A stretch of 6,643 bases of DNA from a virus (Duplodnaviria; Heunggongvirae; Uroviricota; Caudoviricetes): the IMG/VR virus record IMGVR_UViG_2778261696_000002, positions 1 to 6,643 of that record. The stretch is one strand, 5' to 3'. Made by a program: the position numbers and the translations under genes. Positions 1 through 6,643 of the stretch are shown piece by piece; position 1 is the stretch's first letter, and the number at the start of each line of letters is the position of its first letter. The notes below the pieces were generated by a model that was given only the letters and a program-made list of their open reading frames with translations, did no database searches and was not told the DNA's origin.

Positions 1-767
1 AGGTCAGCATCGGTGCCGGACTCCTGCAAATCCCAGAAGACGGAGGCGCTGATGCCGGTAACACCGTTTACCCCGACATTGGACAGCGTTTTATGCCAGC
101 CCTGCTCCTGGTCGATTTTAGCGCGCAGACCCAGCGCACGGGCGGTGGCATACGCGGTGGCGGTGGTACTGGTGACCGTATCCCATGCGAGGAAATCCGG
201 CCAGATGACCATCAGCTCACGCTGGCTGAAATTCTGGCGGTAGGCTTTCACCTCGGAAATAGTCTTACAGCCCCATGCGCTGATATATCCGAAAGCGCGC
301 AGCTTCTGACAGACGGATGCCAGTGCAACAGCCACCTCTTTGGTATCCAGTCCCGGCACACCGAGAATACGCGGTTTAACACCAGTTACCGACTCCGCCG
401 CCAGCAGGGCTTTCAGTCCGGTGTACTGACCGTTTTCGTCGGTGGTGCCGATGATATTGGAAACGGTCTGCGCAAGTTTCGTTTCCTCGTCTTCGCCGGT
501 GCCGTCTTCCACACGCACGACAACGGTGACCGGTTTTGACTGGTCAGCGATGGCCTGCAACGATGCTGCCAGCGTGCCTTTTTTACCGGCCTTTGCAATT
601 GCGCTCTGCACATTGGTAATCAGCACCGGTTTATTGAGGGGGAAGGTTTCCGCATCCGCATCGCTAGCCGTACAGACCATGCCGACAACGGCAGTGGATA
701 CGGTGGAAATGACGCGGGTGCCGTCGTTAATCTCCAGCACCTGCACGCCATGATGATAGTCACTCAT
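1..767 (-). CDS. FI: Tail sheath protein, N-terminal about 255 codons (3' end beyond window start)
   Basis: Hand translation of the minus strand from ATG at 767-765 gives MSDYHHGVQVLEINDGTRVISTVSTAVVGMVCTASDADAETFPLNKPVLITNVQSA with no stop down to position 1. This matches the P2 FI N-terminus from memory. GGAG Shine-Dalgarno (reverse complement of 775-778) lies 7 nt upstream of the ATG. Not in the ORF track because no stop is in the window. Confidence 0.9.
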   Translation of the reverse strand, partial: MSDYHHGVQVLEINDGTRVISTVSTAVVGMVCTASDADAETFPLNKPVLITNVQSAIAKAGKKGTLAASLQAIADQSKPVTVVVRVEDGTGEDEETKLAQTVSNIIGTTDENGQYTGLKALLAAESVTGVKPRILGVPGLDTKEVAVALASVCQKLRAFGYISAWGCKTISEVKAYRQNFSQRELMVIWPDFLAWDTVTSTTATAYATARALGLRAKIDQEQGWHKTLSNVGVNGVTGISASVFWDLQESGTDAD

Positions 768-789
768 CCGTTTAACTCCGTGGTTAATG

Positions 790-860
790 GGTGCAACTAT
801 TTTCTGTTGGGCAGTGCATGAGACGCTATTTGACCTGGCTGGTCAGTGGATGAAACAACA
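790..860 (-). promoter_or_regulatory. Candidate late promoter region for the FI operon (PF-like)
   Basis: About 90 bp non-coding between the upstream terminator hairpin and the FI ATG. On the minus strand there is an imperfect TGT-N12-cCA element (about 840-857) and an AAAATA -10-like hexamer (about 799-806) spaced roughly as in Ogr-activated P2 late promoters. Positional inference only; the dyad is imperfect. Confidence 0.25.
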
Positions 861-891
861 GATAAAGAAAAGGCGGGCAATTCGCCCGCCT
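861..891 (-). terminator. Rho-independent terminator candidate ending the J-I-H-G-cargo transcript
   Basis: Plus strand 871-891 aGGCGGGCaattcGCCCGCCt forms an 8-bp GC-rich stem with a 5-nt loop. On the minus strand it is followed immediately by TTTCTTTATC (reverse complement of 861-870). It sits between the cargo gene stop and the FI promoter region. Confidence 0.45.
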
Positions 892-1087
892 GTCCTGATT
901 TGTACTCACTCATTTTCCGACTGACAATTTACATAGCCCAAACGCTATCAATTCTGACAGTCTGCTTTGAGCGAGGAGCGGACGTTGACAACGGTTTATT
1001 CAGTTTATTGAATGAATACTATATCCATTTACCCAGTTCGACCTGACAAACAATGGCATTTTAAAAATTTATCACACAATGATTATT

Positions 1088-2299
1088 TTATATTTTCCTC
1101 AAGGTTGATGTGTTGATACCTTTTATCAATTCATAACGGGGAAAACCTACGGAACACTCATTTAATATGTTCGAATGAGTTGTTACGATGGTTTGAAATG
1201 AAGTCTCAATGGAATTCAATCTTTCAATGTATGGTTTAAAAGATTCCTTTGATAAAAAGGTTTCATTCATTTCTATAAAAAGTAGTGTCGGTGTGTATTT
1301 GGAACGCTCATTTAATGATGCGATTATAACATCCAATAGCACTCTAGTTTTTTCACTTCCAGATAAACACTCGAAAGGCAAATAAGAATCATTACCTTGT
1401 ATCATGCAATAGATATCATGAATATCTCGCTCTTTTTCATCTTCACTATCATCATCCTGTTCCAGCTCTTCCTGAGTAGCAAATCTGATTGATTTAAGTA
1501 TGCCTTTTTTGTTTCTGCATACATAATCAAAAAGACTCTCAAGTAGCACTGGCGATATATTTATGAACTCAGCAAAAAAGTTAGATGTTTTATTATATTT
1601 TTTCTTTGAGTAATTAAAATCAAAAAAATAGCATGCAAAAGGAAAAGGACTTGAGGTAATGTCAAGAGAATCAACTTTATAGGAAATCCTTCCGCTATTT
1701 ACACTCACTTCAATTAAGTGTGGCTCTGGCGTGTGCAAATAAATTTCAATATTGAGCTTTTCACAATTAACCCAGCGCTCAAGTCTATTTATTGCACTGA
1801 CACTTGATAACCACTCGCATATTGCTGTTTTCCCTGCGCCATTACTATCACTCTCAATAATTGTTATTTTTGCAAAGTCGATGCTTATTGAATCTTGAAA
1901 TAAAGGACTATCAACTATTGATAGTTTTGATATCCAATGTAATTTATTGACGATCCTTCCCTGGTGATGTTTAATGAATTCCTCATGATATTTTTTCCAA
2001 CTAATTAGTTGTGATGCGGTAAATCCTGCTCCATTATTTGTATCAACTAACCTTGCGTGTACCTTACATAGCCAAATTCCATTCTCAGGGCTTTTTAACT
2101 GTTCTTCTGTTAGCCCACCTTGCCCTCTGGGGCCATTTTTAGCTGCACTATAAATATGTGATGCCTCACCGATGCTGGATGTCTCATCCTCTTTTTCACC
2201 TGGGCCAATAGTTATTATTGAACATTGAGGATGGCTACATTGGTATCCTGCTCTCCCAGCAAGTACATTCTTTGTTCTTTCTGTGAATTCTACTCTCAT
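1088..2299 (-). CDS. Hypothetical fusion protein: N-terminal HNH-type nuclease domain plus C-terminal ABC-type (AAA_21/SMC-like) P-loop ATPase; candidate anti-phage defence protein
   Basis: Uninterrupted 403-codon ORF with AGGAG Shine-Dalgarno (reverse complement of 2304-2308) 4 nt before the ATG. HNH motifs: C21-x4-C26, E45-A-S-H48-I, N55-G-P-R, N73-G-I-W-L-C78-x2-H81. ATPase motifs: beta-strand ITIIES then P-loop S-N-G-A-G-K157-T, signature-like L312-S-G-S-E, Walker B-like T-L-L-F-I-E343, H-loop T-T-H375-S. Spot counts give about 30-35% GC against about 55% in the flanking phage genes. Function is inferred from motifs, not from a database hit. Confidence 0.8.
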   Translation of the reverse strand: MRVEFTERTKNVLAGRAGYQCSHPQCSIITIGPGEKEDETSSIGEASHIYSAAKNGPRGQGGLTEEQLKSPENGIWLCKVHARLVDTNNGAGFTASQLISWKKYHEEFIKHHQGRIVNKLHWISKLSIVDSPLFQDSISIDFAKITIIESDSNGAGKTAICEWLSSVSAINRLERWVNCEKLNIEIYLHTPEPHLIEVSVNSGRISYKVDSLDITSSPFPFACYFFDFNYSKKKYNKTSNFFAEFINISPVLLESLFDYVCRNKKGILKSIRFATQEELEQDDDSEDEKERDIHDIYCMIQGNDSYLPFECLSGSEKTRVLLDVIIASLNERSKYTPTLLFIEMNETFLSKESFKPYIERLNSIETSFQTIVTTHSNILNECSVGFPRYELIKGINTSTLRKI

Positions 2300-2335
2300 A
2301 AAGCTCCTATAAACCTAAACGTTAATCTCCAGAAC

Positions 2336-2363
2336 ATTTTATGTTCACCTAGCGATGATGCAA
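2336..2363 (-). promoter_or_regulatory. Candidate sigma70 promoter for the cargo gene
   Basis: Minus strand reads TTGCAT (reverse complement of 2358-2363), a 16-nt spacer, then TAAAAT (reverse complement of 2336-2341), about 30 nt upstream of the cargo ATG. Consensus-like by eye only; other AT-rich hexamers nearby are possible alternatives. Confidence 0.3.
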
Positions 2364-2569
2364 GCATGGGAAAACATAGTTTATTCAATTGAACCAACTT
2401 AAAGGTAACTTGCGCTGCATACAAGTATGCATCCTGTTAACAATTTTACAGGCCTCATATACCAGAATTCCTTGAATACGGCATCATTTTAGGTCGATTG
2501 CCGTATGCCGTGCTTCAGACTACCACCCCTCGCAACATCATCCAATATCATACTTGTTACGTCCGCTAT

Positions 2570-2611
2570 TGGCACAGAGCGGACTGTCAGATTAGGCTTT
2601 ACTCTGTGCCA
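2570..2611. repeat. Perfect 10-bp inverted repeat (TGGCACAGAG ... CTCTGTGCCA) with a 22-nt spacer, just downstream of the G stop
   Basis: Read directly: 2570-2579 tggcacagag and 2602-2611 ctctgtgcca are exact reverse complements. No T-tract follows on either strand, so it is not a canonical intrinsic terminator. It lies at the junction between the GC-rich G 3' end and the AT-rich cargo region. Confidence 0.6.
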
Positions 2612-2645
2612 TAGATATGTAAGCTCACACCAGAGTTCATATAAC

Positions 2646-3173
2646 TTATTGCGGCATTTCCGGCCATTCAGGATTTGCAGGATCCACACGGCTGACCAGA
2701 ACACTGTAGCGTTCCCATGCTTCCAGTCGGCTACGCTCCTCATCTGTTGCCATGTTCAGCCTGACAGCGCGCTCCAGTGGCAAAATCACGGATTCAGCAT
2801 CTGCAAGAAGTCTGGCTTTCCGGTTTTCTGCCTGCTGCTGCAATTCCTCTGCCGTATAAATGCGTTTAATCACTGTACCGTCCTTAAACATCCAGTTCCC
2901 TGAAATGTCCGCCCGTCGGTTAGCAGTAATATCCGCCACTTCAACAACACTTAATCCATCCGGTCTGATAGCTGTCACATCCTTTTCCACATAGCGGATG
3001 ATATTATCTTTGTCGTACGCTATTTTTAGCGTGTCATCAGCAAAATACTTTTGTTCTTCGTACCAGTTCTTACCATCTTCTGAAAAAAACCAGACAACAT
3101 CAAAGTCTTTTGTCAATTGATATTGTTCAACCGTTTTTGGATTACCCGCCGTAATATTTTTTAAATGCTGCAT
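2646..3173 (-). CDS. G: Tail fibre assembly protein (Tfa/chaperone)
   Basis: 175-aa ORF starting [22 protein letters not shown] and ending ...[41 protein letters not shown], matching the P2 gpG/Tfa family from memory. The ATG at 3173-3171 lies 3 nt after the H stop. Located directly downstream of the tail fibre gene. Confidence 0.9.
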
Positions 3174-3176
3174 AAA

Positions 3177-5306
3177 TTATACCTGCGCCACGTTATACCA
3201 TGTCCCGTTAATGTATTTCTGAACCGGTCTGTAATATACACCACCAATGTTATCGGCAGAGTTTGAGCCGGTATCCTGAACAATAATGCCGGAATATACA
3301 CACCCGGACGGTGCCTGATGTGTCCATGTCATGCCATTGTTCGCAGGTTTGTATGTGGCAGCACCACCAAGCCGGATATCCCGGACATAGCGGGAATCAA
3401 AGTTACCGTAATCCGAGGGATTAACACGCCCCGTAATATTTATGGTTTTATTACTTTGAATGCTACCGGAGACAAAGCGCATAACATGGACGTTATTAGC
3501 ATAAACATCCAGATTACCGTCGCCATTTTGTTTAAAGCCCGTGTCATTATCACCCAAAACAATCGAGTTACCGCCAAGAGCACTGGATGTACCGATGCCC
3601 AGTGCACCATTCAATTGACCTCCAGATAATGATAACGCCCCAACATCAGCAGCAGTCGGTTTAATGTGCGAACTGTAAATTACATATACAGTTCCATCTG
3701 TCAGGCCTGTTGGTTTATTCGCTGTATAAGTTGGTGATGTATGAATCGTTACGCTGGCGTTACTGGTATAATCCCACTGAATATTAACACCTGTGGCGTA
3801 ATTACCTATTTCAACATAAACATCATAGGTATCACCGGATGTATTCACCCATGCAAAATTAGTAAATCCAACCGAGGTCCGTCGCCATAACGCACCAGTA
3901 AGACCTTTTGGATTTCCATTTCCCGCACGAAGAACAAGTTCAGATATACCAGCCTGCATAGGGGAGTTAACATTATATCCGGCACCACCAATCAGACTTA
4001 TGTAAACCACGGAACTGGCCTGTGGCATGGTTACAGTTGCCAGCCTGAACCATCCTGTACCACCACTAAAAGACATGGTTGTTGAATTTGTTGCTCCAAT
4101 ATTGCGCAGGAATAATCTTTTATCAGGAATATCCGCGCCATTTTGATCTTTCTGAAGACGTTTTTCAGCATTGTCATAGGCAGACTTCACCGCTTTTGGT
4201 GTTGCGGCCAGCGTTTCCGAATCACTGTTGGTGGCGCTACTGAGCTGGACAAGACCTTTTCGCGCTGTGGTGGCGTCCTGTGCGGTATATTTCCCGTTAG
4301 CAAGGTCATACGCTGTCTTAACCGCCTTTGGCGTTGCAGCCAGCGTTTCAGAATCGCTGTTTGTGGCGCTACTGAGCTGGACAAGACCTTTTCGCGCTGT
4401 GGTGGCATCCTGTGCGGTATATTTCCCGTTAGCGAGGTCATATGCTGCCTTTACCGCCTTTGGCGTTGCCGCAAGCGTTTCAGAATCACTGTTGGTGGCG
4501 CTACTGAGCTGGACAAGACCTTTTCGCGCTGTGGTGGCATCCTGTGCAGTGTATTTCCCGTTAGCAAGGTCATATGCTGCTTTTACCGCTTTTGGTGTTG
4601 CGGCGAGCGTTTCAGACGTGCTGTTGGTGGCACTACTGAGCTGGACAAGACCTTTTCGCGCTGTGGTAGCGTCCTGTGCGGTATATTTCCCGTTAGCCAG
4701 GTCATATGCGGCCTTAACCGCTTTCGGCGTTGCAGCCAGTGTTTCAGACGTGCTGTTGGTCGCACTGCTTAACTGAGTAAAACCTTTTGCGGTCAGCGAG
4801 GCGTCCGGGTGACGTCGTGACTGTTCATGTTCTGCAATTTTGTCATCAACGTAATCCTGCGTCGCCATCACCGTTGTGGTGTCAATGGTCAGCTCCACTG
4901 AGGTCACACTGCTGACGATGATGACCATACGGCAGGTCTGCGAACGCCCTGAGCCTTCGGCAAGAGCTGGCTTATAACTTTCGGCCATGTTCGCCACGGC
5001 AATTAACGTTCCAGCATCATCGTACAGGCCAAGCTCACGCATCCAGAAACCGCCCACCTCCGGCGGAATAACCAGCTCTGCGATAATATAATTACTGTTT
5101 CGTTTGTCCTGGCTGATTTTGTTCAGCGCATGTCGCCAGACTTCGTGGATAAGCCCGGTCTGTCCGGCATCCGGGACAGGCAATTTACCACCGCCATCCC
5201 CGACGGCCATCGTGGTAATGTTGATCTTCCGCCCTCCCGGCGCGGTTGCCGCTGCCAGCTTTGCTGCACCGGCAGTGGTGATAACGGTTCTGAATTTTGT
5301 GCTCAT
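3177..5306 (-). CDS. H: Tail fibre protein with five tandem phage-tail-fibre repeats and a distal receptor-binding region
   Basis: 709-aa ORF. N-terminus MSTKFRTVITTAGAAKLAAATAPGG is typical of P2 gpH-type fibres. GAGGA ribosome-binding site precedes the ATG at 5306-5304. Contains repeated units TAQDATTARKGLVQLSSATNS(T/D)SETLAATPKAVKAAYDLANGKY. The C-terminal third is Gly/Asn/Thr-rich, as in fibre tips. Confidence 0.9.
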   Translation of the reverse strand: MSTKFRTVITTAGAAKLAAATAPGGRKINITTMAVGDGGGKLPVPDAGQTGLIHEVWRHALNKISQDKRNSNYIIAELVIPPEVGGFWMRELGLYDDAGTLIAVANMAESYKPALAEGSGRSQTCRMVIIVSSVTSVELTIDTTTVMATQDYVDDKIAEHEQSRRHPDASLTAKGFTQLSSATNSTSETLAATPKAVKAAYDLANGKYTAQDATTARKGLVQLSSATNSTSETLAATPKAVKAAYDLANGKYTAQDATTARKGLVQLSSATNSDSETLAATPKAVKAAYDLANGKYTAQDATTARKGLVQLSSATNSDSETLAATPKAVKTAYDLANGKYTAQDATTARKGLVQLSSATNSDSETLAATPKAVKSAYDNAEKRLQKDQNGADIPDKRLFLRNIGATNSTTMSFSGGTGWFRLATVTMPQASSVVYISLIGGAGYNVNSPMQAGISELVLRAGNGNPKGLTGALWRRTSVGFTNFAWVNTSGDTYDVYVEIGNYATGVNIQWDYTSNASVTIHTSPTYTANKPTGLTDGTVYVIYSSHIKPTAADVGALSLSGGQLNGALGIGTSSALGGNSIVLGDNDTGFKQNGDGNLDVYANNVHVMRFVSGSIQSNKTINITGRVNPSDYGNFDSRYVRDIRLGGAATYKPANNGMTWTHQAPSGCVYSGIIVQDTGSNSADNIGGVYYRPVQKYINGTWYNVAQV
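4176..4793 (-). repeat. In-frame tandem repeat, 132-bp period (44 aa), about 4.7 copies, inside gene H
   Basis: The string tgagctggacaagacc recurs at 4241, 4373 and 4505, and as tgagctggacaagacc again at 4637, exactly 132 bp apart. The fifth (N-proximal, 4765-4793) copy keeps the protein sequence but uses different codons. Only a few substitutions separate the units (for example T/D and A/T/S in the protein). Confidence 0.85.
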
Positions 5307-5316
5307 TATTCCTCAC

Positions 5317-5847
5317 TTATCCGGGGTAAACCGTAATTACATCGCCGTCGTAAGCCACACAACCGGCGAACAGGTAGCCGGGAATGTCCCGGGTAATGTT
5401 CAGGCCAATAAGGTGGCGGCTTGCAGGTTTGGCATCGGCAATCAGCCGTTCCATTTCCTGATACATTGCCTCCGTGATGCCGCTTTCCAGTACACCAATA
5501 TCAAGCCGGAAGGTGCCTGGCGGGTCACTGTTTTCCCACCACTCCGTCACGTTGATGAGATAGCCGAGCGGCTCCACCACACGCCGGATTGCGCCGATAG
5601 TGCCTTTATGACAGTGGATGAAATAGGCATCGCGAATAACGGCGCGTTTGGTCGCTTCCGGCCACTTTTCATCCCACCTGTCGACCGAAAACGCCCACGC
5701 CAGCCACGGCAGCAGATTTCCCGGGCAGGTGTCCGGGTTCCACAGTTCACGAATACTGACCGGCGTTTTTTCAATTTCCGCACAGGCTTTTGCGGCAGCA
5801 ATTTCAAGCGGTGATGAGCCGGTCGGCAGCAGGCGCGAATCACTCAT
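5317..5847 (-). CDS. I: Baseplate assembly protein
   Basis: 176-aa ORF MSDSRLLPTGSSPLEIAAAKACAEIEK..., the same length and N-terminus as P2 gpI from memory. Its ATG lies inside ATGAGTGA, overlapping the stop of J. Its stop is 10 nt before the H ATG. Confidence 0.9.
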   Translation of the reverse strand: MSDSRLLPTGSSPLEIAAAKACAEIEKTPVSIRELWNPDTCPGNLLPWLAWAFSVDRWDEKWPEATKRAVIRDAYFIHCHKGTIGAIRRVVEPLGYLINVTEWWENSDPPGTFRLDIGVLESGITEAMYQEMERLIADAKPASRHLIGLNITRDIPGYLFAGCVAYDGDVITVYPG

Positions 5848-6643
5848 CCGAGCCTCCGGTCACGACGCGGTATTCGGTACAGAAAGACGCCTGCGTACTG
5901 TTGAGCACAATGTCGGCCAGTGGTGCGGCCAGCTCGACACGCTGCACGCCTTCCACATGCAAAGCGGCATAAATGGCAGACAGACGGATGTCGCGCCCCA
6001 GCCGGTGCTGCGCCGTGATGTACGCTTCCAGTTTTTTCACGGCAGCAGCGCGGATGGGTTCGCTTTCGGGACCAGGGTAAAGGTAAAGCGTGGCGTTTAT
6101 CTGGTATTCAACAATGGCGGCAGACTGCACGGTCACGCGGTCGGCCACCGGCCTGACGTCCTCGCCATTAAGGGCGTTACGCACCACGGCCAGCAGGTCT
6201 TCGGATGCCACACCGTTATTTTCACGTGACAGCACAGAGATGGTGACGCAGGCCGGAGACAGACTGGTGACAGAAATATCCGCGACACGCCCGTCGGCAC
6301 TGCGACCATGATACTGATAGGCCCCCACCGACCCGGCGACGCTTAAACCTTCAAACGCCTGCTGAATACGCAGACGATAATCAGTATCAGATTCCATCAC
6401 TGCCGGTGTCGGCGGGATGGTCGAATCGTCTGCCGGGGTGATAATCAGGCGTGTGGTGTTGTAATTGGCACCAATCACATCAAGGTCATTACCGGCGGCA
6501 CAGGCCAGCATTACCGCCCGTGCTGCCTCATTCACACGCTGACGCCAGATAAGCTCACGATAAGCATTTTCCTCCAGCAGTTTGACGAGAGGCTCGGATT
6601 CCAGCGTCAGGGTACGGGCGACCGCCTCCTGCTGGTCTTCCGG
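5840..6643 (-). CDS. J: Baseplate assembly protein J, C-terminal 267 codons (5' end beyond window end)
   Basis: The reading frame is open from the window edge (6643) to the TGA at 5842-5840. The track starts it at an internal Met (6535), but the frame continues upstream. Sequence ...NEAARAVMLACAAGNDLDVIGANY... matches P2 gpJ from memory. P2 J is about 302 aa, so about 35 N-terminal codons are off-window. Confidence 0.88.
   Translation of the reverse strand, partial: PEDQQEAVARTLTLESEPLVKLLEENAYRELIWRQRVNEAARAVMLACAAGNDLDVIGANYNTTRLIITPADDSTIPPTPAVMESDTDYRLRIQQAFEGLSVAGSVGAYQYHGRSADGRVADISVTSLSPACVTISVLSRENNGVASEDLLAVVRNALNGEDVRPVADRVTVQSAAIVEYQINATLYLYPGPESEPIRAAAVKKLEAYITAQHRLGRDIRLSAIYAALHVEGVQRVELAAPLADIVLNSTQASFCTEYRVVTGGSDE

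Follow-up and report, generated by a model that had tools for sequence, protein, structure and literature searches.

Here we describe a single-chain fusion of an HNH nuclease domain and an ATP-binding cassette (ABC) head, a protein of 403 amino acids encoded from an ATG start on the minus strand at positions 1088..2299 (stop codon 1088-1090) of a 6,643-nucleotide stretch of viral DNA (Caudoviricetes; IMG/VR record IMGVR_UViG_2778261696_000002, positions 1 to 6,643), hereafter the window. The window is the late-gene region of an Escherichia coli P2-like prophage, with its genes on the minus strand, and the fusion gene lies between genes G (tail-fibre assembly) and FI (tail sheath). An initial annotation, made from the letters alone, had placed the open reading frame (ORF) there without stating its strand, had read it as one polypeptide with HNH first, and had proposed a fold check; profile and structure comparison bear this out, finding an HNH (His-Me finger) domain at residues 1-115 and an ABC head at residues 123-403. 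On sequence grounds, we consider it probable that the fusion is a defence nuclease gated by its nucleotide-binding head. Nuclease-plus-ABC/SMC conflict proteins are a familiar class, of which it is a member; its architecture joins known parts in a combination that is unnamed in the libraries and papers searched and that departs from both parent families in their defining catalytic residues.

The HNH domain and the ABC head

The N-terminal domain (1955..2299, minus strand) has a beta-beta-alpha-metal fold and significant profile similarity to the Cap5-SPARHA-ABC-3C clade. Among PADLOC models, residues 2-122 matched PDC-M68A at 3.6e-22 and the CBASS 'Endonuclease'/SAVED_HNH effectors at 1e-17 and weaker. 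Against solved structures, the single fusion sequence found 9om4 (6.6e-11), which is the HNH effector of the SPARHA short-Argonaute system (PMC12738770), and also the Cap5 entries 7rwk and 8ysq; the family profile returned 9om4 at 7.6e-20 and Cap5 entries at about 1e-15. HNH domains of this clade carry two catalytic histidines, one on a strand and one on a helix, together with Cys/His zinc ligands, and are found joined to SAVED, pAgo-associated, STAND, PPR, ABC-3C and MTAN modules (PMC12738770). By profile and structural similarity, the domain is a member of the zinc-finger HNH clade that serves as the DNA-cutting effector in Cap5, SPARHA and Lamassu-like ABC-3C systems.

Motif conservation was assessed in an alignment of 192 full-length members of the fusion family, with a median identity to the query of 30%. 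H48, P57, R58, N73, C78 and D86 are invariant (192/192), C21, C26, G44 and G56 are conserved in at least 98% of members, and F5, A14 and R16-G18 are conserved about the HNH N-terminal helix (residues 7-16). His48 (codon 2156..2158, minus strand), the predicted general base, aligns with the beta-strand catalytic histidine of the SPARHA and Cap5 HNH domains (His46 in 9om4), and N73 with N71 of 9om4. The zinc ligands of the CCCH finger are C21, C26, C78 and H81; position 81, equivalent to H79 of 9om4, is His in 183 members and Cys in 9, and because such exchange is the behaviour of a zinc ligand, H81 is assigned as the fourth ligand. The motif set first proposed holds for C21/C26, H48, N73 and C78, but not for N55, a position that is not conserved (Gly in 60 members, Asn in 58, Asp in 18, and others), nor for H81 as other than a zinc ligand. 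Bridging Glu45 is kept in 58 members.

The beta-strand histidine and the structural asparagine are present in every member, and the helix histidine of the 'CxxHH' motif is absent from the query. Ala82 aligns with catalytic H80 of AcaSPARHA, in which N71A/H80A abolishes nuclease activity (PMC12738770), and the canonical helix histidine is therefore missing from the fusion protein. Across the family, position 82 is Ala in 105 members, Gly in 54 and Ser in 7 (166 together, or 87%), and His in 25. The invariant D86, one helix turn past position 82, may take the metal role of the missing histidine. In prophages, E. coli plasmids of ~110 kb and diverse bacteria, domains of the same HNH clade (residues ~2-110/125) are also joined to numerous other C-terminal domains; these other fusions are mostly annotated as hypothetical, and PHROGs 21516, 34329 and 29098 (function unknown) correspond to them.

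The C-terminal domain (1091..1933, minus strand), which follows a linker at residues 116-122 with a predicted local distance difference test (pLDDT) score of ~60 in the predicted monomer, is by fold and profile matches a minimal SMC/Rad50/RecF-like ABC nucleotide-binding head. Structural match figures were highest for the SMC head 5xei (18.4), Rad50 (18.1) and RecF (17.4), followed by PtuA (15.9-16.0), JetC (15.3), GajA (15.1), AriA (13.7) and, for the N-terminal part, Cap5 (13.0); Foldseek agrees. The family profile matched SMC1A heads at 8e-8, Rad50 at 1.5e-6, the retron Ec83 ATPase at 5.5e-5, AriA at 4e-4 and PtuA at 0.018, and PADLOC models gave weak matches of 1e-4 to 1e-2 to residues 300-384 (GajA 1.4e-4; PtuA 5e-4 over 44 residues; HEC-01A; AriA 8e-3). 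There is no coiled-coil arm of the kind inserted in the heads of SMC, Rad50, LmuB and JetC; in its place between the two lobes, residues 228-300 hold only ~70 residues of short helices and strands with an acidic loop.

The Walker A motif, or P-loop, SDSNGAGKT (residues 150-158; 1826..1852, minus strand) has G156 and K157 in 190 of the 192 members and Thr or Ser at position 158 in 191, giving GK[T/S] in 99%. In the signature-like LSGSE (residues 312-316; 1352..1366, minus strand), S313 is kept in 86% and E316 in 81%; both of these motifs had been recognised at the outset. The Walker B strand LLFIE (residues 339-343; 1271..1285, minus strand) ends in Asp or Glu in 180 members (94%), and the residue after this acid is Met344 in the query and Gly, Ser, Ala, Leu, Trp or Asp in the family; 'DE' occurs in only 5/192, leaving the catalytic Glu missing in 97%. 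In FQTIVTTHS (residues 368-376; 1172..1198, minus strand), Q369 is invariant, and the H-loop histidine H375 is restricted to the query's clade (24/192, with Pro in 79) and missing in 87%. The Walker B-like LLFIE343 and the H-loop TTH375S that had been pointed out are thus both present, but no catalytic Glu follows the former and the latter is clade-specific; the term 'ABC ATPase' is overstated for a family with degenerate hydrolysis residues.

The alignment shows that the head retains the residues of ATP-Mg binding and of a head-to-head ATP sandwich (Walker A Lys, Walker B acid and signature Ser), and that the hydrolysis machinery of catalytic Glu plus H-loop His is not retained. This is the pattern of a head that would bind and sandwich ATP and hydrolyse it poorly if at all, and the head is probably an ATP-binding, nucleotide-dependent dimerisation or sensing switch rather than a motor. 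Because residues of the HNH domain (H48, N73, D86) and of the head (GK157, Q369) are conserved together, both halves are under selection.

The fusion family and its hairpin-bounded cassette

A word-indexed search found 80 proteins, nearly all of 390-420 residues and covering the whole query, with identities that range from 98% (Salmonella) through 85-88% (Serratia, Proteus) and ~43% (Vibrio, Marinobacter) to 26-35% (Ruegeria, an acidobacterium and many metagenomes). An exhaustive profile search of 1.84 billion representatives returned 12,266 matches with E<1e-3, of which 817 had E<1e-30; most of the weaker ones are to the HNH domain alone, and the best 150 (<1e-79) are almost all single-stretch and full-length, in proteins of 380-430 residues. 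Clustered at 50% identity, the fusion family amounts to no fewer than several hundred clusters, spread over several phyla. Full-length relatives lie on plasmids of Priestia megaterium and Kitasatospora. A scan of a genome collection with a 13-sequence alignment gave only HNH-domain relatives that end in other C-termini, with no full-length member among them.

No Pfam, NCBIfam or PADLOC v2 model covers the fusion over its full length. Pfam gave only sub-threshold SMC_N and HNH_2 matches, NCBIfam only PtuA (15.8 bits against a cut-off of 500), and PHROGs only sub-threshold or unannotated matches. As the Pfam, NCBIfam and PADLOC models tried do not pick up the family, it is probably overlooked by defence annotation tools. 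A literature search found WP_050487813 in no paper and no named single-gene HNH-ABC system, and the main texts of PMC13092281 (DefensePredictor), PMC9122126 (Rousset 2022) and PMC13586616 do not mention one, in keeping with the initial failure to recognise a named system. The last of these (2026, P2/P4) describes a single-gene system, 'Toga', with Ppl/SMC-like matches, which was not compared with the fusion.

Gene neighbourhoods of eleven family members contain no conserved neighbour. In Vibrio fluvialis and in Ruegeria the gene has metabolic genes on either side, in Marinobacter it lies in an island with an integrase and IS110, in Serratia it adjoins a PAAR-Rhs locus, and in V. splendidus it has PIN_12 genes near it and a Zot-encoding filamentous-phage gene ~5 kb away. 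A metagenome copy directly follows a type I restriction-modification (R-M) operon and precedes DUF3800, another homologue is placed between IS21 and an integrase, the Proteus copy adjoins a prophage integrase, and the Salmonella copy adjoins the integrase of an island with AlpA. As these neighbourhoods are wholly different, the fusion gene would act alone or with host factors. The window itself agrees with the earlier statement that there is no adjacent partner: no partner gene, reverse transcriptase or non-coding RNA (ncRNA) was found in it and no credible small partner ORF, an Rfam search of it gave no match, and the 300-nt leader of the fusion gene folds no better than shuffles (z = -0.28). 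Next to pth-ychF of Salmonella enterica, a 98%-identical protein is encoded beside a tyrosine integrase, in an island with AlpA and a second integrase, and this arrangement was seen in 22 further similar places; the P2 hotspot and another integrative element thus share the same defence candidate.

In E. coli EC12, RefSeq annotation of an identical stretch runs from a tail fiber assembly protein through an 'HNH endonuclease' (WP_050487813.1) to a tail sheath protein. The flanks of 900-2650 were matched in 823 of 5426 complete E. coli genomes, and the fusion cargo was present in only 10, eight of them with a 100% identical locus and two with 99.5-99.9% identity, all chromosomal and adjoining the tail-fibre assembly gene. 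Elsewhere, the same junction holds a 181-aa ORF (reference P2), a SMEK-domain gene on the opposite strand (phage vB_EcoM-12474III), a metal-binding-domain protein (phage pro147) or NUDIX plus HAD hydrolases (P24C9, Peduovirus). The P2 G/FI junction, or Z-region, is a variable cargo site, in line with the established knowledge cited at the outset. The fusion ORF is also far more AT-rich than its neighbours, as first noticed, with a G+C fraction of 0.350 against 0.574 in the FI part, 0.451 in G and 0.586 in J, and its DNA looks foreign.

A mobile cassette of 1.63 kb (960..2584) holds the fusion gene with its 5' and 3' non-coding DNA only. Its FI-side end is hairpin B (GTCTGCT-TTGAGCGAGG-AGCGGAC; 960..983, plus strand) and its G-side end is hairpin A (GTCCGCT-ATTGGCACAG-AGCGGAC; 2561..2584, plus strand). 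A repeat search of the window found a 33-nt imperfect inverted repeat at 953-985 / 2559-2591, the core of which is these two 24-nt hairpins with a common stem, GTCCGCT/AGCGGAC, and different conserved 10-nt loops; where 0.01 matches would be expected in the window, the hairpin pattern has 2. In P2-like phages with other cargo, the DNA in common with the window is confined to the parts outside ~984-2558. Conversely, blastn recovered 960-2584 from hairpin to hairpin within unrelated flanks in a Salmonella integrase/AlpA island (98.6%), a Proteus prophage (88.7%) and Serratia next to Rhs (87.3%), the homology breaking off no more than a few bases from the hairpins (947-960 and 2584-2587 of the window). 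Sequence comparison thus identifies the cassette as mobile between unrelated elements.

In viral contigs, the exact hairpin pattern occurs at at least 120 loci, a scan with 14 specified bases in which some chance matches are expected; among the matches listed, 93 are usable hairpins in the same two loop families, and the G/FI site accounts for 21 of the 120 loci. The NUDIX+HAD cassette of P24C9 (960-2449 of its locus) is, from hairpin B to hairpin A, 99.2-99.5% identical to copies in lambdoid-type prophages, where it lies between DUF977 and DUF968 genes, and the hairpins are found around the cargo of P2 and that of vB_EcoM-12474III as well. The cassette boundary repeats are already on record, since GenBank entry AJ512680.1 (P2-EC46 proviral Z-region, ~2003) annotates left and right inverted repeats at 157-247 and 3298-3410, of which the left contains hairpin A and the right hairpin B. 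The paper behind this entry is presumably that of Nilsson et al. Two recent hotspot papers make no mention of hairpins or inverted repeats.

Junctions between the two hairpins were also seen: hairpin B lies 0-18 nt past hairpin A in seven loci, abutting it in one, and in one further locus (3094-3682) a B...A pair is just 565 bp apart. These arrangements may be empty sites or places where cassettes are joined in tandem, and they resemble integron attC arrays. Hairpin A is overlapped at 2570-2609, in the conserved G-side flank, by a perfect 9-bp stem, GGCACAGAG-N22-CTCTGTGCC, and this stem is kept with single-base changes in the four P2-like sequences compared. A sigma-54 reading of the hairpin A loop (TGGCAC) was rejected, there being no TTGC at the right spacing; an IS200/IS605 or REP-like nature of the hairpins was considered as well.

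Among the expression signals credited to the insert, the Shine-Dalgarno sequence is there (AGGAG at 2304-2308, minus strand, 4 nt before the fusion ATG, read from the sequence). The promoter-like hexamers fared worse. A consensus promoter scan found nothing within 250 nt upstream of the fusion ORF and, over the whole 2-kb region, one site against 6.9 expected in shuffles; what can be picked out by eye is a weak candidate sigma-70 promoter, TTGCAT-N16-TAAAAT (2336-2363, minus strand), with 8/12 consensus matches, and as this falls below the scan threshold the promoter claim is weak. The downstream terminator is real, a 9-bp stem (7 GC) with a T-run at 871..891 (minus strand) between the cassette and FI, but it lies within DNA ~95% identical to P2-like phages with other cargo and therefore belongs to the conserved P2 backbone and not to the insert.

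The remaining genes of the window, placed from the ORF list and all on the minus strand, are J (5840-6535), I (5317-5847), tail fibre H (3177-5306), tail-fibre assembly G (2646-3173, the flank of the cargo, also placed by RefSeq order) and the 5' part of tail sheath FI (1..767), which starts at 767 and runs off the window. Within H, 4173-4760 (minus strand) consists of 4.5 tandem copies of a 132-nt unit with 90% matches, encoding ~44-aa repeats (…ATNSxSETLAATPKAVKAAYDLANGKYTAQDATTARKGLVQLSS…), and the length of the H gene varies among related phages.

Proposed mechanism and rival explanations

We suggest that the fusion, whose gene is the only one in its small mobile cassette at the P2 Z-region hotspot, is a stand-alone conflict protein directed against phages or other mobile genetic elements (MGEs). 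The P2 hotspot, the MGE islands, the R-M adjacency and the ancestry of its domains together make an anti-phage defence role plausible. In Cap5 and SPARHA, the HNH domain is activated by tetramerisation through its N-terminal helix, and the clade as a whole is expected to act through tetramers or higher oligomers (PMC12738770). The head of the fusion protein would be an ATP-dependent dimerisation or sensing latch, and each protomer would have two self-association surfaces, namely the HNH N-terminal helix, as in Cap5/SPARHA, and the ATP-bound head, so that, with altered head engagement, dimers that are inert could become tetramers or filaments. ATP depletion, the binding of phage DNA ends or structures, or a phage protein might be what triggers this. 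Within tetramers or filaments, two HNH dimers could meet to form a composite active site as in Cap5/SPARHA, with the catalytic metal held by Asp86, His48 and Asn73 and not by the missing position-82 histidine, and the outcome would be non-specific cleavage of double-stranded DNA (dsDNA), leading to abortive infection or to destruction of the invader DNA. In this particular oligomerisation scheme we place far less confidence than in the general proposal of a gated defence nuclease.

Several points weigh against a gated defence nuclease. Nuclease activity is not assured, because the canonical helix histidine is Ala82 in the query and Ala, Gly or Ser in 166 of 192 members. The gene is rare, occurring in 10 of 5426 complete E. 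coli genomes, it was not found in the deposited phage genomes searched, and several homologues sit among ordinary metabolic genes. As to novelty, an HNH-ABC architecture might already be listed in the ABC ATPase classification of Krishnan et al. 2020 (NAR 48:10045).

The loss of the helix histidine raises an alternative, namely a catalytically dead HNH domain in a protein that is an ATP- and DNA-binding factor and does not cut; it could be a decoy or a repressor, for instance, or else act in anti-defence or bind DNA ends. That position 82, catalytic in SPARHA, is Ala here and Ala, Gly or Ser in 87% of the family speaks for it, as does the retention of bridging Glu45 in only 58/192. However, His48, Asn73, Asp86, the zinc ligands and GPRG are conserved at 95-100% across 192 members with a median identity of ~30%, which would be unexpected of a dead domain, and 25 members retain the helix histidine. 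Many active His-Me nucleases, moreover, use a single helix ligand (Cas9 D839/N863, T4 endonuclease VII). We therefore regard a dead HNH domain as unlikely. An accessory role in phage or host repair, recombination or replication, in which a mini Rad50/SbcC/RecF-like head with its own nuclease would serve the prophage and not the exclusion of other phages, appears rather improbable, even though SMC, Rad50 and RecF heads are the best structural and profile matches of the C-terminal domain: the protein has neither a coiled coil nor an Mre11/SbcD-like partner, the hydrolysis residues that repair ABC ATPases need are missing, the HNH clade is one of immune effectors, and the gene is sporadic, cassette-borne and takes the place of unrelated cargo where the site is non-essential.

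HNH enzymes are frequent among homing endonucleases, and the 1.63-kb cassette occurs from hairpin to hairpin in four unrelated genomic settings, so the fusion could be a selfish homing-type nuclease that spreads its own hairpin-bounded cassette. This is very unlikely, in that the same hairpins bound nuclease-free cassettes such as NUDIX+HAD, 99.2-99.5% identical between P2-like and lambdoid-type prophages, and more distant homologues lie in contexts where no exact hairpin was found on inspection. The presence of the hairpins around the cargo of P2 and vB_EcoM-12474III also makes mobility independent of the fusion gene.

The gated defence nuclease, which we favour over these alternatives, can be extended to a bolder proposal that we offer as doubtful but conceivable. 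In it, the fusion would be a one-chain mini Lamassu/ABC-3C, an unnamed and widespread single-gene immune family with a non-hydrolysing SMC-like latch and an HNH domain active only in higher-order assembly, and the hairpin cassettes would amount to an integron-like exchange of defence genes, with no known recombinase, among P2-like phages, lambdoid prophages and integrative islands.

Should the fusion indeed confer phage protection, it would be among the smallest nuclease-plus-SMC-like immune proteins and a tractable single-chain model for the gating of effector oligomerisation by the ABC/SMC heads of Lamassu, Septu, PARIS and Gabija. With a head that binds ATP but apparently cannot hydrolyse it, sensing could be uncoupled from the use of energy, and its HNH domain is without a residue thought to be catalytic in its clade. 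The cassette bears on how prophage hotspots swap defence genes, and hairpins A and B provide a sequence handle for finding further cargo genes.

Comparison with known systems

The initial comparison was with Septu (PtuA ABC ATPase plus PtuB HNH) and with the retron Ec78/Eco7 and Ec83 effectors. The shared logic holds, but these systems consist of two proteins, whereas the fusion is one chain with HNH first, and the HNH domains of Septu, retrons and Cas9 are of a different, diverged and monomeric clade (PMC12738770). The nuclease of the fusion lies nearer to the Lamassu-like/Cap5 clade, and by profile its ATPase is nearer to SMC/Rad50 heads (8e-8) than to PtuA (0.018). The fusion falls outside Septu, with a PtuA match of 15.8 bits against 500 in NCBIfam, a profile E of 0.018 and no second gene.

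P2 Old, Gabija GajA (ATPase-TOPRIM), fused AriAB (PARIS) and Gao_Ppl (PHP-ATPase) resemble the fusion in carrying an ABC-type head and a nuclease on a single chain. In contrast to the fusion, their nucleases are TOPRIM or PHP domains at the C-terminus, the PHP nuclease of Ppl included, and their ATPases have DE, the H-loop and helical dimerisation inserts. The fusion has no TOPRIM domain, and its weak GajA and AriA matches are confined to the C-terminal ATPase motifs. Single-chain ABC-nucleases as such are already known in P2/P4 hotspots, in the form of Old and fused PARIS (PMC9122126).

A close neighbour by location is ORF2 of the P2-EC46 Z-region (AJ512680.1, 'putative lysogenic conversion protein'), an uncharacterised protein from the same hotspot with the same flanking inverted repeats. 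Its N-terminus belongs to the same HNH clade (39.8% identity over residues 2-110; PDC-M68A 9.6e-24), but the 250 residues at its C-terminus differ and do not form an ABC head. With Cap5 (HNH-SAVED) and SPARHA, the fusion shares a homologous HNH domain, the CCCH zinc finger, GPRG, the N-terminal dimerisation helix and a long C-terminal helix. The regulatory module of those proteins is SAVED (a cyclic-nucleotide sensor) or APAZ/pAgo, whereas that of the fusion is an ABC head with no cyclase or Argonaute gene nearby, and the second catalytic histidine (HH) of Cap5/SPARHA is replaced by Ala.

PDC-M68 pairs a nuclease of the same HNH clade with an SMC-like ABC protein. A Rhodococcus plasmid locus annotated 'ABC-three component system protein / middle component 6 / DUF2326' matches PDC-M68A at 8.8e-94 and PDC-M68B at 7.5e-219, the latter protein also matching LmuB models, and PDC-M68 is therefore an ABC-3C system, a name that papers on Lamassu/DdmABC apply to the Lamassu class. 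PDC-M68 has three genes (HNH effector M68A, a middle component and the DUF2326 ABC ATPase M68B), its effector acts in trans and its ATPase is long, with a coiled coil, and LmuB-like; the fusion is one polypeptide with a 280-aa head that has no coiled coil, and unlike Lamassu/ABC-3C it has neither a middle component (LmuC) nor an LmuA-type C-terminal domain. The similarity resides in the nuclease, in that the family profile aligned with an M68A-type effector at an hhalign probability of 98% over the HNH part only, and it gave no alignment to, and no specific similarity with, the DUF2326 ATPase. M68A was likewise matched only at profile positions 2-121 of 253, with no M68B or LmuB match, so that the single gene falls outside Lamassu/ABC-3C proper. 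Lamassu effectors become active only as tetramers, which form once the effector has been released (bioRxiv 10.1101/2025.03.14.643221). By domain similarity, the closest two-gene analogue of the fusion is the ABC-3C/Lamassu-like candidate PDC-M68, and not Septu.

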